IMG/VR virus record: IMGVR_UViG_3300020045_004684
Location: 1 to 28,704 of that record
Length of the DNA: 28,704 bases
Direction: 5' to 3' (one strand)
Source of the DNA: a virus
Taxonomy: Duplodnaviria; Caudoviricetes
A program made the translations under genes and the position numbers. Below, one piece after another: positions 12,825 to 28,610 of this stretch; positions within the stretch are counted from its first letter, which is position 1; each line of letters opens with the position of its first letter. The notes under the pieces are model-generated. The model was not told where the DNA came from. It did not search any database and worked only from the letters and a program-made list of their open reading frames with translations.

Positions 12825-13007
12825 ATGGCTGTTGCTCCTCCACCTCCCCCGTCATCTCGCACGTCGGCAAACGCGCACTTGAACTTGCGCGCTATCGCTG
12901 AGGAATTGCTGGCTATGTCTCAACGGTGCTTGCATCTGGCAGAACAGGTTCAGGCCGACGCGGACGATTTGCAGCTTACCATCAAGCGACTGGCAGACAA
13001 TGGATAA
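12825..13007 (+). CDS. Small hypothetical protein
   Basis: 60 aa with AAGGA RBS; overlaps the next ORF. Confidence 0.6.
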   Translation: MAVAPPPPPSSRTSANAHLNLRAIAEELLAMSQRCLHLAEQVQADADDLQLTIKRLADNG

Positions 13008-13509
13008 GGCGGCGTATCTCGCGTGGGCGATTGCGCTCTGGCCTGCCTTGCTGGCGATCACGCTCTATTGCGTCATGACAAAGAACTGGGACGGGCTGCG
13101 ATGTGCGGTCCTGCTTGGCGGCGCGCAATGGGGCATGGATATGTATCTGTCCTATACCGGATGGCTTCCAGAATATGGGCAGCCGTGGCAAGTTCATCTG
13201 GTTATCTACTCAATATGTTGCATTGTTGCAACAATACTGCCAGCCGGTCGCATTTGCTCTTTACTTGGCGCGGTATTTATTGCAGGCGTAGCATGGGCGA
13301 TAGTTCGCGGCGTGGTTGAATATACCATAGGGTCAACCGGCGCGGTGGATTATCTTTATTGGCGGGGAACGCTTTACAATGGTTGGCTAATGCTTGCTAT
13401 TACAGCCGGGGGCGCATCTGGTGAAACTGGAAAGCGCATTGTTAATTCTCTTTGGCGCGGCGTTATTGGCGTTCCTGTCGCGTCGCGTAATGAGGGTGTG
13501 GCGTCATGA
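13000..13509 (+). CDS. Multi-pass membrane protein in the lysis region
   Basis: 169 aa with about 5 hydrophobic segments. Confidence 0.7.
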   Translation: MDKAAYLAWAIALWPALLAITLYCVMTKNWDGLRCAVLLGGAQWGMDMYLSYTGWLPEYGQPWQVHLVIYSICCIVATILPAGRICSLLGAVFIAGVAWAIVRGVVEYTIGSTGAVDYLYWRGTLYNGWLMLAITAGGASGETGKRIVNSLWRGVIGVPVASRNEGVAS

Positions 13510-13700
13510 CCGTAAGACCGAAGACTGAGCGCCCGTCGATCCTCGCTATTGCGGCGCTGGTCATTTCGGCTCTTGGGTTGTTCCTGAATTTCTCCGCTGC
13601 GTCGTCTGAGCCTTGGAAGGCGCTGAACGACTGGAAACATGGAATTGAGGAACGGCTTTGCAGGCTTGAGGCGACGGCTCAAAAGGGGAATTGCAAATGA
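13506..13700 (+). CDS. Single-TM small protein (holin/antiholin-like)
   Basis: One TM segment plus a short coiled coil ('IEERLCRLE'). ATGA overlaps at both ends. Confidence 0.6.
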   Translation: MTVRPKTERPSILAIAALVISALGLFLNFSAASSEPWKALNDWKHGIEERLCRLEATAQKGNCK

Positions 13701-14470
13701 ACCTGCCGCGTGGCTATATCCTTTCTGGGCAGCCGTCTCTTTTCGGCAAGCCTGATGTGATTGGCTTTGGCGATGACGCGTTTTTCGTGCGGGAAATTGA
13801 CCGCGACCGGGCAAACGCCATCATCGTTCGCAATCATTATAGCCGCAAGTTTTACAGCGCCACATACATTCATCTTGGCGTCTATATCGATGGGGAATTG
13901 CACGGCATTTTGCAATTTGGCTATGCCATGAACCCTGCCAGTGCGGGCGGGGTTGTCGAAGGCACGGGCATTGATGAGTATCTAGAACTTAACCGCATGT
14001 GGTTGGATGACTTCGCCCCACATTGCAGTGAAAGCCGGGCCTTGTCATGCGCGATCAAGTTTATCCGCCGCCGCTATCCAAAAATCAAATGGGTGCAATC
14101 CTTCGCCGATGAACGGTGCGGTAAATTTGGCGCGGTTTATCAGGCGGCGGGCTTTCGGTATTTTGGCGAGCATGATTCCATTTTTTGGGAACTTGACGGG
14201 GTTGTTTATCATAATAGCTTGATGACCCGTTCTCCCGAATTGTCTAAGTCTGCTGCGTTATTGCGGTCTGGCAAGGATCGTGCCACCAGTTCAACACTTC
14301 GCCAATTCCGCTATCTGTATTTCATGGCCCCGCGCTTTGCCCGTGGGGTAAAATTCAAAGAACAACCATTTCCTAAACCTTCTGCGGCCCGTCTATTGGA
14401 CGCCCCGGTTCCCACCGGTGCGAGCAAGGCGCGAATCCTTGGGGCCGCTCCAAATCTAGTGGCAGCATGA
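13697..14470 (+). CDS. mom: Mom-family DNA adenine hypermodification enzyme (GNAT fold)
   Basis: Motifs 'NHYS.K', 'LQFGYAMNPAS', 'YLELNRMWLDD', 'ESRALS', 'WVQSFADERCG', 'VYQAA.F.Y.G.H', 'FWELDG..YH', 'QFRY' and 'QPFPK' match phage Mu Mom. Confidence 0.9.
   Translation: MNLPRGYILSGQPSLFGKPDVIGFGDDAFFVREIDRDRANAIIVRNHYSRKFYSATYIHLGVYIDGELHGILQFGYAMNPASAGGVVEGTGIDEYLELNRMWLDDFAPHCSESRALSCAIKFIRRRYPKIKWVQSFADERCGKFGAVYQAAGFRYFGEHDSIFWELDGVVYHNSLMTRSPELSKSAALLRSGKDRATSSTLRQFRYLYFMAPRFARGVKFKEQPFPKPSAARLLDAPVPTGASKARILGAAPNLVAA
14384..14452 (+). ncRNA. tRNA-Gly-like element (non-canonical) embedded in the mom 3' end
   Basis: Perfect 7-bp acceptor stem GCGGCCC/GGGCCGC followed by T and CCA. Perfect 5-bp T stem CAAGG/CCTTG with a 7-nt loop. 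Anticodon-like arm CCGG-TTCCCA-CCGG; reduced D arm GTC-TATTG-GAC. Confidence 0.75.
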
Positions 14471-14507
14471 TAATTGCTGCGATCTATTATGCAAAGGGGC
14501 AAGGTAG

Positions 14508-14960
14508 ATGAACCTATCCGAACACTTCACACTTGCGGAACTGACGCGAACAGCGCAGCCCTTCCCGAACGTGCCGAACGCGCAAGAGATTGCCAACCTG
14601 ACCGCTCTATGCGTGAACGTGCTTGAGCCTATCCGCGCTCATTATAAAATGCCGGTGCATGTCAATTCAGGCTTTCGTAGCGCTAAGGTGAACGCGGCGG
14701 TGGGGTCTAAACCAACGTCATGGCATCGCAAGGGGTGCGCTGCTGACATTGAGATGTGGGGCGTGACGAACGCTGCGCTGGCTTGCTGGGTGCGGGATAA
14801 TCTCAAATTCGCAGAGTTGATCTTGGAGAACTATCGCCCTGGCATTGTCGGCTCTGGCTGGGTGCATGTCGCCTATTGCGCTGGATGGAACGTGGGCAAG
14901 GTCAAGACAATGCGATTGGGTAGCCATGGCCCGGTTTATTCTGTGGGGATCAACGTATGA
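14508..14960 (+). CDS. Endolysin, peptidase M15 family (Zn D-Ala-D-Ala/L-Ala-D-Glu peptidase-like)
   Basis: 'LSEHFTLAEL', 'SGFRS..VN.AVG', 'S.H..G.AADI' and 'WVHV' zinc-binding motifs. Confidence 0.9.
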   Translation: MNLSEHFTLAELTRTAQPFPNVPNAQEIANLTALCVNVLEPIRAHYKMPVHVNSGFRSAKVNAAVGSKPTSWHRKGCAADIEMWGVTNAALACWVRDNLKFAELILENYRPGIVGSGWVHVAYCAGWNVGKVKTMRLGSHGPVYSVGINV

Positions 14961-15184
14961 CAAAGGGCATCTTTCGCGACGTGATAGGCGGTGGCCTTGT
15001 CTGCGGCTTCCTAGGGGCTGGCGCGGCGCTCTATGCGCTTCCAATCCCCGAGACGAACCACGATCTGGTTGTGTTCATGCTTGGGCAGCTTTCCGGCTTT
15101 GTCGGGGGTGTGGTTGCATACCACTACGGGACGAATGCGAGTTCAGCACGAAAGACTGAATTGATGTCCAAAGAGCAAGATTGA
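14957..15184 (+). CDS. Holin (two TM segments)
   Basis: Two hydrophobic helices, 'IPETNHDL' and 'Y.YG...SS.RK.E'; adjacent to the endolysin. Confidence 0.75.
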   Translation: MTKGIFRDVIGGGLVCGFLGAGAALYALPIPETNHDLVVFMLGQLSGFVGGVVAYHYGTNASSARKTELMSKEQD

Positions 15185-15246
15185 AGAGTTCCGCAATGCG
15201 GGAACCGGGCTGCGCGGGTCAGCAGTAAATACGAAAGGAAAGTAAC

Positions 15247-15600
15247 ATGCGCGAGTTGAACGATCATAAAGTTTACCTCGTGAACGATATAATTTCCATC
15301 ACTGTCGCGGATGAACCTGGTGCTGATGGTGCAAATCACAAATATGTGATCGGCGGATATGATGGCGCTCCTGTGATTGATTTTCAGAATGGCCCTATCA
15401 ATGAGGCTGGTGTTAATGGTGTCACACAAGAGGCTCTCTTGGCAATTGTGGCTGACAGGCTTCGTTCGTTCCAAGCAGGACCGTATAGTTCACGGGATAA
15501 CGCTATAGCGCTGACGAAAGTCGAGGAAGCTATGCAGTGGTTGCATAAACGGACACTCGATAGAATGCGCCGTAATGTTGAAGGAACGTCGCAAGTTTAA
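15247..15600 (+). CDS. tad1: Tad1-like anti-Thoeris signalling-molecule sponge
   Basis: 'EPG..GA.H.Y', 'FQ.G', 'LL.IV.DRLRSFQAGPYSSRDNA.ALT.VEEA..W...R..DR..RNV.GT' matches Tad1. Strong GAAAGGA RBS. Confidence 0.85.
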   Translation: MRELNDHKVYLVNDIISITVADEPGADGANHKYVIGGYDGAPVIDFQNGPINEAGVNGVTQEALLAIVADRLRSFQAGPYSSRDNAIALTKVEEAMQWLHKRTLDRMRRNVEGTSQV

Positions 15601-15607
15601 CCACTAA

Positions 15608-15633
15608 GGGCGGCTTGCGTTTGTGAGCCGCCC
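15608..15633 (+). terminator. GC-rich hairpin downstream of tad1
   Basis: GGGCGGCTTGC-GTTT-GTGAGCCGCCC stem. There is no U-tract, so a terminator role is uncertain. Confidence 0.4.
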
Positions 15634-15666
15634 GAAAGACTGAATTGCTTGGGAAGGATGGCGAAA

Positions 15667-15855
15667 ATGGCTGAGATTAAAACGCATCTTTATGCTCTCG
15701 ATTTGTGTGATGGGGAATCATATTGGGTGATTGGGCCAAAGCATACAGTCAATGATATTTTGAGGCACGTTCTTAATGAAGTTGGTGGTGAGGAATTGGC
15801 GTTCCTAGCGACGGAAATAGCAAGGGAAACGAGCGATGAAATTCAAGTTCTTTAA
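15667..15855 (+). CDS. Hypothetical protein
   Basis: 62-aa ORF starting MAEIKTHLYAL; overlaps the next ORF. Confidence 0.55.
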   Translation: MAEIKTHLYALDLCDGESYWVIGPKHTVNDILRHVLNEVGGEELAFLATEIARETSDEIQVL

Positions 15856-15988
15856 GCGCCTAGCAGGCCTAGCCGTAGCGCTCTCAGGCAAGCGCGGTGC
15901 AATCGACGCAGCGGGAGAGACTATCAGCCAGATCGGCGGCAAGAAGGCGCGCAAGATCGTGAAAAAGATCGGCGATCAGGTGGATTGA
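15836..15988 (+). CDS. Cationic amphipathic peptide (50 aa), possible outer-membrane disruptin
   Basis: Below the ORF-track cutoff. MKFKFFKRLAGLAVALSGKRGAIDAAGETISQIGGKKARKIVKKIGDQVD; last gene of the + operon. Confidence 0.55.
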   Translation: MKFKFFKRLAGLAVALSGKRGAIDAAGETISQIGGKKARKIVKKIGDQVD

Positions 15989-16035
15989 TCAGCGTCACCT
16001 TCCATCACGCTAGCAGGGGTTATAGCCCGCGTTTT

Positions 16036-27759: not shown

Positions 27760-28431
27760 TCATGCCGCCGCTCCTTGAATGAACATGTCGCCTTGGCGTT
27801 GCGCGTCTTCGATGCGCTTGCAGGCAATGTCGAAGTAACGCTCTTCGCGCTCAATGCCGATGAACTTGCGGCCCATCTGGACGGCTGCGACTCCGGTGGT
27901 GCCACTGCCCATGAAGGGGTCTAGAATGGATTCGGCGTCTGGCAGAAAACCAAGGCACCACTTCATCACAGCTATTGGCTTTTGCGTCGGGTGGACTCGG
28001 CCATCTTGCAGAGCCTGCGGACGTGTATAGGTGAAGATGCGCGCAGCCTTACGCTGGCTGCTCCACGCAAATTCACAATCTGCGAGGCTAAAATCGCGCT
28101 GCCCCTTATCCCAAACCAACCACTGCATCGTAGGTGGAAGGATGTCTGCGAAATAGTTACCGCCCCAAATTATCTGGTGTTGAGTAGCAGCCAGCATTGC
28201 GTTGAACAAATCAGCGGCGGGGCGGTTTTCATCCCAATCAAAATCTTCGTAGTGCTTCCAGCGGTTCCGGTCGAGGCCACCATTGCCATCACCCTTACCT
28301 TTCATCTGCTTGCCGTAGTCAATACCATACGGAGGATCGGTCACGACTGCGTCAACCTTGCCCAGCGTTGGCAGAATGTCAGCGCAGTCCCCCAAGTAGA
28401 GCGTGGCGTTGCCGATTGTGCGAACAGTCAT
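27760..28431 (-). CDS. DNA amino-methyltransferase (N6-A/N4-C, beta class)
   Basis: 'VVTDPPYG', 'HPTQKP', 'ILDPFMGSGTTG', 'FIGIERE'. ATG at 28431 with GGAGG RBS. Confidence 0.95.
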   Translation of the reverse strand: MTVRTIGNATLYLGDCADILPTLGKVDAVVTDPPYGIDYGKQMKGKGDGNGGLDRNRWKHYEDFDWDENRPAADLFNAMLAATQHQIIWGGNYFADILPPTMQWLVWDKGQRDFSLADCEFAWSSQRKAARIFTYTRPQALQDGRVHPTQKPIAVMKWCLGFLPDAESILDPFMGSGTTGVAAVQMGRKFIGIEREERYFDIACKRIEDAQRQGDMFIQGAAA

Positions 28432-28610
28432 GCCATCCTCCAATCGATTATGTCGAACGGGTTTTCAGCGTGGTTCCAGCGCACCGCGTGTTGATCCGAT
28501 ACGCGAACCTGCATGGGGATAGTCTCGACGCCATTGCGCAGACGTGCGACAATCTTGTCGGTATCTATGAGCTTATGGGGGCGCTCTCCGGTGTTGACGT
28601 GCCAGTTCAT
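28428..28610 (-). CDS. Hypothetical protein
   Basis: MNWHVNTGERP...FDIIDWRMA; coupled to both neighbours. Confidence 0.65.
   Translation of the reverse strand: MNWHVNTGERPHKLIDTDKIVARLRNGVETIPMQVRVSDQHAVRWNHAENPFDIIDWRMA

Follow-up and report, generated by a model that had tools for sequence, protein, structure and literature searches.

The window, the whole 28,704-nt stretch of viral DNA analysed here (Caudoviricetes; IMG/VR record IMGVR_UViG_3300020045_004684), carries a mom-family gene followed by a short ORF and an endolysin gene (Table 1). The product of ORF 13697-14470 matches the Pfam family PF25680 (Mom) with an E value of 6e-68 and 228.9 bits, against a cut-off of 27.1, and is 45% identical to Mu Mom. 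The key residues of the Mu enzyme, taken from PMC13219725, are kept at H58, Y59, R111, S124, D149, R151 and Y159, which correspond to H47, Y48, R100, S113, D138, R140 and Y148; the equivalents of W48 and W181 differ. Towards its 3' end the ORF reads through a tRNA-Gly-like cloverleaf, as the translation confirms, and the combined sequence evidence establishes this element as genuine.

Table 1 Features of the mom locus and of the tRNA-Gly-like element in the window.
Feature	Position	Strand	Basis or remark
mom-family gene, 257 aa, predicted DNA adenine glycyltransferase, GNAT fold	13697..14470	+	PF25680, PHROG 1384
69-nt tRNA-Gly-like RNA element	14384..14452	+	direct read, fold, comparative covariation
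acceptor stem 5' strand (G1, C2, G3)	14384..14390	+	pairs with 14442-14448, 7 bp
reduced D arm	14391..14401	+	3-bp stem, 5-nt loop
anticodon arm	14404..14419	+	6-nt loop 14409-14414; anticodon UCC at 14410-14412
T arm	14425..14441	+	5-bp stem, 7-nt loop; A50-U64, A51-U63; loop without U54-U55
discriminator U73 (14449) and encoded CCA (14450-14452)	14449..14452	+	sequence read
read-through peptide tail ending Ala-Ala	14384..14470	+	possible protease tag
14-codon ORF	14467..14511	+	overlaps mom stop and endolysin start; possible translational coupler
endolysin (Peptidase M15)	14508..14960	+	puts mom in late tail-lysis region

The direct read matches the structure proposed in the first-pass annotation, namely a 7-bp acceptor stem, U73, CCA, a 5-bp T stem with a 7-nt loop, a missing connector and a 6-nt anticodon loop. 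Of the two anticodons named there, UCC is borne out as the register by homologues and CCC is not. The D stem directly abuts the acceptor strand without an 8/9 connector, and the D loop holds the G19 equivalent at 14398 and a U at the position-18 equivalent (14397). The anticodon stem consists of four Watson-Crick pairs and a C.U at 27:43. With C54-G55-C56 in the T loop and U18 in the D loop, the element lacks the U54-U55-C56/G18-G19 combination. The element scores 81 bits with its own model, R1, of whose training set it is a member. A descriptor composed after the element had been seen (GCG start, 7-bp acceptor, 5-bp T stem, TCCA) matches once in the window and in 0/200 Markov-resampled windows. 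Folded alone by RNAfold, the element forms the cloverleaf (z = -1.8; 11/200 shuffles do as well); within 181 nt of surrounding sequence (z -0.9), the minimum-energy structure is another fold, and the cloverleaf is kept in the centroid. These folding energies are weak and are not counted as support; the decisive evidence is comparative covariation.

The main alignment contains 77 distinct copies of the element, many of them mutually related, so the counts overstate independent events. All four stems covary, with 94.6% of cells paired (35-49% in slid controls) and two-sided change in 16 of 23 pairs; cells with two-sided change number 297 versus 82 in shuffles, and 0/500 shuffles are as good. The conserved covarying cloverleaf beside mom homologues that had been named as a check on the first-pass annotation is thus found. 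In the acceptor stem, 1-72 and 2-71 are invariant and 4-69, 5-68 and 7-66 covary; the D stem shows a G-C to C-G swap in 2/77 copies, and the anticodon stem (helix 6) covaries though no search ever required it. The top 15 MI pairs are made up of 12 stem or loop-closing pairs and three D-loop/T-loop contacts including 19-56, and 18-55 is also among the top covarying columns. The elbow pair 19-56 of translational tRNA is present in 72/77 copies, changing between G-C (58), C-G (5), A-U (2) and U-A (1). Among homologues the element is read in two reading frames.

The bases that specify glycine are retained. Bacterial GlyRS recognizes G1-C72, C2-G71, (G3-C70), U73, C35 and C36 (PMC9976931), and this set, together with CCA, is kept across copies; the window element holds the full set that had been ascribed to it. 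NCC occurs at a fixed offset in 73/77 copies, with C35/C36 part of no search pattern, and U73 is invariant in the 33 Mom-anchored copies, for which the search did not demand it. The wobble base is free (UCC 39, ACC 21, CCC 11, GCC 6).

Features of decoding are lost. The D stem begins at position 8, leaving no U8 or two-base connector, in 77/77 copies, a trait partly imposed by the search patterns and also seen in the 33 Mom-anchored copies. The 6-nt anticodon loop of the window element recurs in 33/77 copies, 43 of the 44 seven-nt loops pair position 32 with 38, U33 is found in 37/77 copies and G55 in 64/77. Two pairs known for tight EF-Tu binding, G49.U65 and G51-C63 (PMC7826273), are found in 1/77 and 7/77 copies respectively, versus 9/12 each in canonical tRNA-Gly. 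Also named for tRNA-Gly are the (G10-Y25):G45 triple region, which is not conserved in the rebuilt D arm, and the Thermus pair C50-G64, which is not conserved either (21/77 copies; A-U in the window element). By extrapolation from the T-stem rules, the element would bind EF-Tu poorly. ARAGORN calls no tRNA in the window and 0/77 copies, and Rfam over 13000-16000 gives one chance miRNA match and no tRNA match. The weak or pseudo call expected of tRNA finders appears in 3/77 copies, at a lowered ARAGORN threshold only. The element is an RNA family called by neither Rfam nor ARAGORN.

A DNA-only scan, with 100 matches yielding 63 cloverleafs, places 55 of the 63 next to a Mom-family gene, some of these genes being only 22-32% identical to that of the window; the other 8 have no Mom above the Pfam cut-off nearby. 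Three of 151 family-level genomes carry the element, each beside mom, and it is absent from 7 of the 10 Mom-bearing genomes of that sample and from 145 of the 200 Mom loci whose flanks are long enough. Each genome has one copy. No element follows mom in Mu, JD024, PAN70 or pAEv1818, and none lies beside the gene in Mosig, HTVC008M, S-SCSM2R or S-CAM9; the cultured phages examined have none, whole-record searches of five returning ARAGORN-callable tRNAs only. The pelagiphage HTVC008M has a DUF4338 gene and an odd tRNA-Gly(ACC). A broader model, R2, finds no reduced forms at 99 AT-rich Mom loci. Its absence from Mu and from the 145 loci marks the element as an accessory part, and since the tree was built by a quick method and has long branches, it is not read for the direction in which the element was gained, lost or transferred.

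Placement varies, the element lying inside, 3' of, 5' of or inverted relative to the Mom gene; copies occur as far as 960 nt downstream, ahead of the gene, where the ORF begins or on the other strand, and some mom ORFs stop inside the element. Among prophages, Sphingomonas aquatilis DSM 15581 has a free-standing, inverted copy and Caulobacter sp. ErkDOM-C one that overlaps the stop; a Sphingomonas copy is 70 nt long. The description 'hidden in the 3' end' of mom therefore fits the window copy and fails as a rule, being one of several arrangements. A 67-nt form sits 5-8 nt after canonical tRNA-Gly genes in phage tRNA arrays. A promoter-like motif accompanies 30/37 free-standing copies versus 4/46 embedded ones, against a background of 4-6%, so an internal promoter for embedded copies is rejected; a sigma-70 scan of the window finds no promoter just before the element.

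Smaller relatives of 63-68 nt follow DUF4338/DruA-like genes of T4-like phages. This arrangement is seen in 79 of 88 small-class copies with enough flank, and 15 of 71 DUF4338 loci lack the element. CC (C35/C36) is present in all 50 loops, G49.U65 in 2/50 and G51-C63 in 1/50, and a promoter-like motif accompanies 66/84 copies (background 6%). With their 4-nt anticodon loops, the 63-nt forms may be poor GlyRS substrates. The DUF4338 protein model (pLDDT 87.9) retrieves Mu Mom, 8bv8, at rank 1 in Foldseek (prob 0.99, E 0.009) and at rank 1 of 48,161 in VIA (Z 9.8, rmsd 4.0, 169 aligned), where its lead over other GNATs is a modest 1 Z unit or so. Comparison by hhalign gives no signal (probability under 1%), the profiles being shallow. 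The predicted GNAT fold of DUF4338 is thus closest to Mom, a link through fold and not through sequence profiles. The phage members of DUF4338/DruA (PF14236) resemble the Mom genes in preceding smaller versions of the element and in this predicted fold, and differ in their length of about 425 aa and in showing, with these shallow profiles, no profile-level similarity to Mom.

The element is probably a phage-encoded glycyl donor for Mom that is kept out of translation. Mu Mom transfers glycyl from Gly-tRNA-Gly, its co-substrate, to N6 of adenine in double-stranded DNA, and rearrangement then yields 6-NcmdA (PMC13219725), in agreement with the donor named in the first-pass annotation. The core idea put forward there, an enzyme with a dedicated glycyl-donor RNA, is strongly supported at the sequence level by covariation, the GlyRS bases, the lost decoding features, the tight linkage both to Mom-family genes whose proteins are far apart and to a second family of Mom-like GNATs, and the promoter motifs on free-standing copies. 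The RNA is not a requirement, since Mu has no element and its Mom accepts all three E. coli tRNA-Gly isoacceptors (PMC13219725).

In the window, RNase P would release the RNA from the late mRNA, and trimming of its 3' end would stop at the encoded CCA; elsewhere a separate promoter or a tRNA operon would drive its synthesis. Host GlyRS would charge it with glycine, and EF-Tu and the ribosome would use the charged RNA poorly, which would leave the charged pool to Mom for the modification of adenine in phage DNA. Such a private donor could raise modification density or spare host translation in late infection. As a secondary and weaker proposal, embedded copies would yield a cut mRNA without a stop and, when uncut, a protein with an AA-ended tail that is possibly a protease tag, so that both products may be short-lived.

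Several other functions can be set against a glycyl donor. As an inhibitor or sensor, the uncharged RNA would fill Mom's tRNA site and quiet the enzyme in the lysogen in an antitoxin-like manner, a role compatible with the housekeeping-type promoter motif on free-standing prophage copies and with the thought that Mom reads chiefly the acceptor end (PMC13219725). It is nonetheless unlikely, as the invariant C35/C36 are bases that GlyRS reads at a distance from the acceptor end, embedded copies can be produced only together with mom mRNA, and T4-like phages carry the element too. Altered anticodon loops could evade anticodon nucleases, TacT reads U73 and G71 of Gly-tRNA-Gly, and some copies lie within tRNA arrays; such points would suit an RNA that acts as decoy or reserve when host defences attack tRNA-Gly by cleavage or acetylation and that passes nothing directly to Mom. 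A general decoy, however, gives no reason for the Mom-type linkage in 55/63 and 79/88 cases, which makes it improbable, and if the RNA were a nuclease-proof donor serving Mom, that would be one form of the glycyl-donor explanation.

No better placed is a primary role in cis, in which an RNase P site splits the late transcript and the resulting nonstop mom mRNA limits the enzyme. G1 falls at the first codon position in 45/46 embedded copies, the spacer between the PK codons and the element is mostly a multiple of 3, the elbow pair is conserved, and tails end in AA in 53/75 element-type genes versus 1/45 others. Against these stand the distant, upstream, ORF-start and opposite-strand copies, the promoter motifs of free-standing copies, and a glycine identity that would be superfluous. 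The limit through nonstop mRNA, raised in the first-pass annotation, is arithmetically possible in the window, where a cut before G1 would leave 229 codons without a stop, and would apply to embedded copies only; it cannot be general, given the many copies located beyond the ORF and the ORFs that in some cases terminate within the element.

That the element is simply a peculiar tRNA-Gly of the phage serving translation is very improbable, and this reading is rejected: CCA, glycine anticodons, the class within tRNA arrays and the canonical or host tRNA-Gly as next-best match of the element model (34-39 bits) would fit, but the missing U8 and connector, the 4-6-nt or pair-closed anticodon loops, the free wobble base, the weak T stem and the absence of ARAGORN calls (0/77 and 0/50, the latter in the small class) do not. 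Hardly credible is an origin as the remains of an integration site within a host gene for tRNA-Gly, or as a chance structure in a GC-rich tail, which is already largely refuted by compensatory changes throughout and by the single copy per genome: prophage ends close to host tRNA genes are a frequent location of mom, but host tRNA-Gly genes (read with a loose pattern, swamped by chance matches in three host genomes and serving for this purpose only) share just their ends with the element, near-identity to a host tRNA 3' half is absent, T arms differ in the same genomes, and other tRNA genes near element loci (Val, Pro, Met, Lys, Tyr) are the likely integration sites.

Mu Mom (PF25680; PDB 8bv8; PMC13219725) shares the family, key catalytic residues and late-gene context of the window enzyme; in contrast, its sequence stops at PYPK, no RNA lies next to its gene and it scavenges host tRNA-Gly, and the main text of PMC13219725 contains no mention of a tRNA-like, mimic or encoded tRNA. 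The staphylococcal NP1-3 tRNA-Gly species that work with FemXAB (PMC7826273, PMC4574755) are likewise glycine tRNAs reserved as donors for GNAT-fold transferases, with similar weak T stems of the A51-U63 type and loss of G18/U55. They are chromosomal isoacceptors for cell-wall peptides, whereas the element is found in phage or prophage DNA next to Mom-type genes, has a reduced 63-73-nt fold without the 8/9 connector, lies within the gene of its enzyme or is linked to it, retains a covarying 19-56 pair, and would have DNA as acceptor. Canonical bacterial and phage tRNA-Gly share the acceptor and T-arm geometry, U73, CCA and NCC, and the element's D arm, connector and anticodon loop fall outside their pattern. 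Reduced D arms with lengthened anticodon stems, in chargeable L-shaped folds, are also present in tRNA-Pyl, mitochondrial tRNA-Ser and the tRNA-like domain of tmRNA; these enter the ribosome, and their identity and context differ from those of the element.

On balance, it seems fairly plausible that both size classes are minimal tRNA-Gly mimics (63-73 nt), charged by GlyRS, shut out of translation and held as private cofactors of DNA glycyltransferases, and that they mark the DUF4338/DruA proteins, a large family in aquatic T4-like phages, as Mom-like, Gly-tRNA-dependent modifiers of DNA. They would then form a widespread, unannotated phage class and a two-part DNA modification system of RNA plus enzyme, whose cofactor RNA in the window lies within the reading frame of its own enzyme. 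If true, an RNA component joins a phage DNA modification that is 50 years old and whose donor has come to light only recently, and phages build a private aminoacyl pool outside translation, through a class of RNA genes missed by tRNA scanners and lying in some cases within coding sequence. The 63-nt forms would rank with the smallest bacterial synthetase substrates that occur naturally and would offer natural tests of the recognition rules of GlyRS, RNase P and EF-Tu. DUF4338/DruA, a family that many aquatic phages carry and that figures by name in Druantia defence, would gain a testable function; the depositors of one cyanophage homologue labelled it 'methylcarbamoylase mom'.

At 28.7 kb, the virus record that forms the window is approximately 54% complete; it contains tail genes and a lysis region as well as a recombination and methylase block running leftward. 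Its mom product is 45% identical to Mu Mom, and the residues reported as catalytic are kept. Mu Mom has its C-terminus at the PYPK motif, whereas the window protein continues for 30 further residues, with the cloverleaf starting 6 nt past the Lys codon of the motif.

Coordinates of the mom gene, the tRNA-Gly-like element and related features (window numbering unless a locus, L plus number, or a phage is named)
Feature	Position	Strand	Observation
mom-family ORF	13697-14470	+	Between tail and endolysin genes; Mom family by Pfam
tRNA-Gly-like cloverleaf	14384-14452	+	Sequence reading and fold
14-codon ORF	14467-14511	+	Bridges mom stop and endolysin start
G+C hairpin	14459-14480		Downstream of the element
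117-aa ORF	15247-15600		Past lysis genes; weak Acb2/Tad1 hairpin match (E 2e-4, below cut-off); possible anti-defence sponge
N6/N4 DNA methyltransferase gene	27760-28443	-	A further DNA-modifying enzyme of this phage, besides Mom
Transposase-like insertion	L077:3166-4623		Interrupts the element in the anticodon arm, with 9-bp duplication; presumably IS256 type, judged from its protein
Distant Mom-like gene (weak)	L265:1434-1991	-	Apparent frameshift split; end overlaps intact element; complete 74.6-kb genome
67-nt form	L294, L301, L312, L318, L323, L335 (mostly 1501-1567)		Closes T4-like phage tRNA array, directly after tRNA-Gly(GCC) and tRNA-Gly(UCC)
Tandem pairs	L676, L678, L680, L700 (~2815-2960)		Two different tRNA-Gly-like elements after the DUF4338 gene
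tRNA-Gly(ACC), pelagiphage HTVC008M	91140-91213 (L729:1501-1574)		3.9 kb from the DUF4338 gene

The cloverleaf that the first-pass annotation placed in the 3' end of mom is confirmed by its sequence and fold and by its viral relatives: among 19 viral loci with a Mom relative, 7 hold the same fold in the same place with compensatory changes, 11 lack it and 1 is incomplete. A weak or pseudogene-like call by tRNA finders had been anticipated; the element is indeed not a standard tRNA call, but ARAGORN gives none at all, and Rfam does not call it either. The folding energy of the element alone is unimpressive (z -1.8), and in a longer sequence context the minimum free energy structure is another fold, with the cloverleaf retained in the centroid. 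Element-type tails are found in 75 of the 120 best Mom protein homologues and use two reading frames (51 end near AAP, 24 near GRS); which frame applies depends on a single-base difference within the anticodon loop. As judged from these sequences, the conserved entity is the RNA and not the read-through peptide.

A descriptor asking for stems and CCA only, run on the 200 nt past the PK motif of approximately 250 Mom loci, yields 33 distinct copies, all 33 beginning with GCG and finishing with U73-CCA; DNA-only scans bring the total to 77. The expected covariation across Mom homologues is borne out in a MAFFT alignment of 73 copies, where 94.6% of cells are paired and 16 of 23 pairs display two-sided change, although the copies are related by descent and such cell counts exceed the number of independent events. 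None of 500 shuffles matches on any measure, and slid controls pair in 35-49%. The searches partly imposed the acceptor and T stems, but not the anticodon stem and tertiary pairs. Across the 77 copies, the top 15 mutual-information pairs comprise 12 that belong to stems or close loops and three contacts between the D loop and the T loop. The three contacts join the first base of the D loop to 59, position 18 to 55, and position 19 to 56 (G-C 58, G.U 6, C-G 5, A-U 2, U-A 1, mismatch 5). These contacts form the tRNA elbow, which makes an L-shaped fold likely.

Two DNA patterns, scanned with no protein input, give 100 viral matches with a full cloverleaf in 63, of which 55 adjoin a Mom-family gene (29 by a close Mom, 22 by a Pfam-detected Mom, 2 duplicates of such loci and 2 from a record search). 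The 17 proteins aligned from the 22 Pfam-found loci are 21-32% identical to the window Mom, and at locus L284 an RNA almost identical to the window element adjoins a protein only 32% identical. The remaining eight cloverleafs are L265, L320 (a fragment, 12% complete) and six of the 67-nt form, located in phage tRNA arrays 5-8 nt downstream of canonical tRNA-Gly genes. The linkage does not hold in reverse, since Mom without the element is common: among the 200 Mom loci whose flank reaches 600 nt or more, the element is present in 55 and absent in 145 (50 more are excluded, their flank being too short), and it is nearly restricted to GC-rich loci (54/103 vs 1/97). It is not found in Mu or three other cultured phages. 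Among 151 genomes from the G011 family, it occurs in 3 genomes (78-89 bits), each time adjoining a close-type mom, and is absent from 7 with longer, distant Mom-like genes; the next-best model matches are host tRNA-Gly. In a quick tree of 110 representatives, the element is present among the deepest branches, and its distribution requires a minimum of five changes, two of them forced by strong branches; the distant Mom proteins were found via the RNA, and that portion is not a free sample.

In many Sphingomonadaceae prophages, the element lies as far as 960 nt past the mom stop; other arrangements are the opposite strand (L028, L030), an upstream position (L279, L308) and an ORF start (L280, L288). 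A promoter-like motif (TTG, a 17-nt spacer, 18 in one, and A at -11) sits 5-11 nt upstream of G1 in 30 of 37 free-standing versus 4 of 46 embedded copies, against a background of 4-6%, in a test designed after the motif was noticed. The absent -7 T is consistent with alpha-proteobacterial promoters in the available text of PMC8407463. Judged from position and upstream sequence, the element behaves as a separate gene. Of the 46 copies within mom ORFs, 45 have G1 at the first position of a codon, and a cut before the element in the window gene would leave 229 codons without a stop. The window Mom ends in Ala-Ala, as do 53 of the 75 read-through tails (both frames), compared with 1/45 other Mom homologues, 3/33 window ORFs and 8/56 neighbours. 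A C-terminal Ala-Ala is a ClpXP signal; overlap with start sites and common descent may also account for these ends.

The GlyRS identity elements claimed for the window copy hold generally: the bacterial determinants given in the available text of PMC9976931 (U73, G1-C72, C2-G71, C35, C36) are invariant across copies. Counted back from the 3' end, NCC stands at a constant distance in 73 of 77, the four exceptions being length variants, and C35/C36 formed part of no search pattern. Any base can occupy the wobble position (U 39, A 21, C 11, G 6), the anticodon loop has 6 nt in 33 of 77 copies, 32-38 is paired in 43 of the 44 loops that have seven nt, U33 occurs in 37 of 77, and the 8/9 connector is missing. 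The pairs described as tight for EF-Tu in the accessible part of PMC7826273 are scarce, with G49.U65 in 1/77 and G51-C63 in 7/77 copies versus 9/12 canonical tRNA-Gly genes each in the same data. Staphylococcal donor tRNAs have likewise lost G18/U55, according to the portion of PMC4574755 consulted.

A second enzyme family carries related elements. In one tRNA-array fragment, a DUF4338/DruA-like gene lies downstream of a helicase gene. Relaxed patterns give at least 220 matches, with at least 134 passing a stem test; among the matches listed, 88 have sufficient flank, and in 79 of these the element comes after a DUF4338 gene, 72 of them within 100 nt (two chance matches dropped, 44 left out for too little flank). 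The small class kept from the matches listed consists of 50 distinct copies of 63-68 nt, all with CC in the hairpin loop, which was not part of the search, and with 51-63 mostly A-U or U-A; ARAGORN calls none of the 50. Upstream regions contain -35 and -10 boxes in 66 of 84 cases versus a 6% background. Counted from the protein, 80 DUF4338 loci, many on the same contigs as the pattern-found ones, include 55 model matches, 1 more plain by eye, 9 incomplete and 15 without the element; divergent forms occur at 18 loci and tandem pairs at four, and all retain CC together with the glycine ends. For the DUF4338 protein, an AlphaFold model (pLDDT 87.9) has Mu Mom as its top match both in Foldseek (prob 0.99, E 0.009) and in VIA, the latter against 48,161 chains (Z 9.8, rmsd 4.0, 169 residues; runner-up 8.7). 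Comparison of shallow sequence profiles gives no DUF4338-Mom link. The HTVC008M tRNA-Gly(ACC), in which the D and T loops are non-canonical and 51-63 is A-U, is possibly a less-reduced form of the element.

The first-pass statement that Mom uses a Gly-tRNA-Gly donor proves correct: in the available text of PMC13219725, Mom moves glycine from Gly-tRNA-Gly onto N6 of adenine, works with each of the three E. coli tRNA-Gly isoacceptors and rejects glycine on tRNA-Ala. The element RNA is probably a private glycyl donor for Mom, as the synthetase determinants are kept, the ribosomal ones are dropped, and the RNA travels with two distant GNAT families. The dedicated-donor proposal of the first-pass annotation is largely upheld and widened by the comparative evidence and the second family, its functional part being a sequence-based proposal. 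Embedded copies would be released by RNase P and 3' trimming, and free-standing ones produced by their own transcription; the RNA would then be glycylated, poorly captured by EF-Tu, and used by Mom as the source of transferred glycine.

Two features speak against easy charging: a rebuilt (G10-Y25):G45 triple region and the lack of conservation of C50-G64. Among the alternatives, an uncharged inhibitor is improbable. A decoy is somewhat less probable still, and equally so is a cis processing signal, for which the codon-boundary position of embedded copies speaks and against which the promoter-like motif of free-standing ones speaks. An ordinary tRNA, with NCC kept and decoding features dropped, is very improbable, and a relic, set against the compensatory changes, is the least credible reading.

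Staphylococci are already known to have glycine tRNAs dedicated to GNAT enzymes, so the kind of system has a precedent. The literature searched, which included few subscription papers, describes neither this fold nor its phage origin, its placement within the enzyme gene or DNA as the target. Such an RNA is not mentioned in the main text of PMC13219725, nor in the available part of PMC7824862, which notes Mom enzymes in jumbo phages; in the YprA preprint, the whole words DruA and GNAT are absent. An att relic was rejected, as host tRNA-Gly genes differ, each genome has one copy, and other tRNA genes lie near element loci. In the AT-rich Mom clade (L025, L122, L126, L146, L159, L244), the first 100 nt past the PK motif hold a coding tail of 99 nt in which a short hairpin is conserved; it is not the tRNA-like element. 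Element-less mom often faces an opposite-strand host tRNA gene 150-700 nt downstream (L049, L051, L060, L063, L067, L068 and others), likely a prophage boundary.
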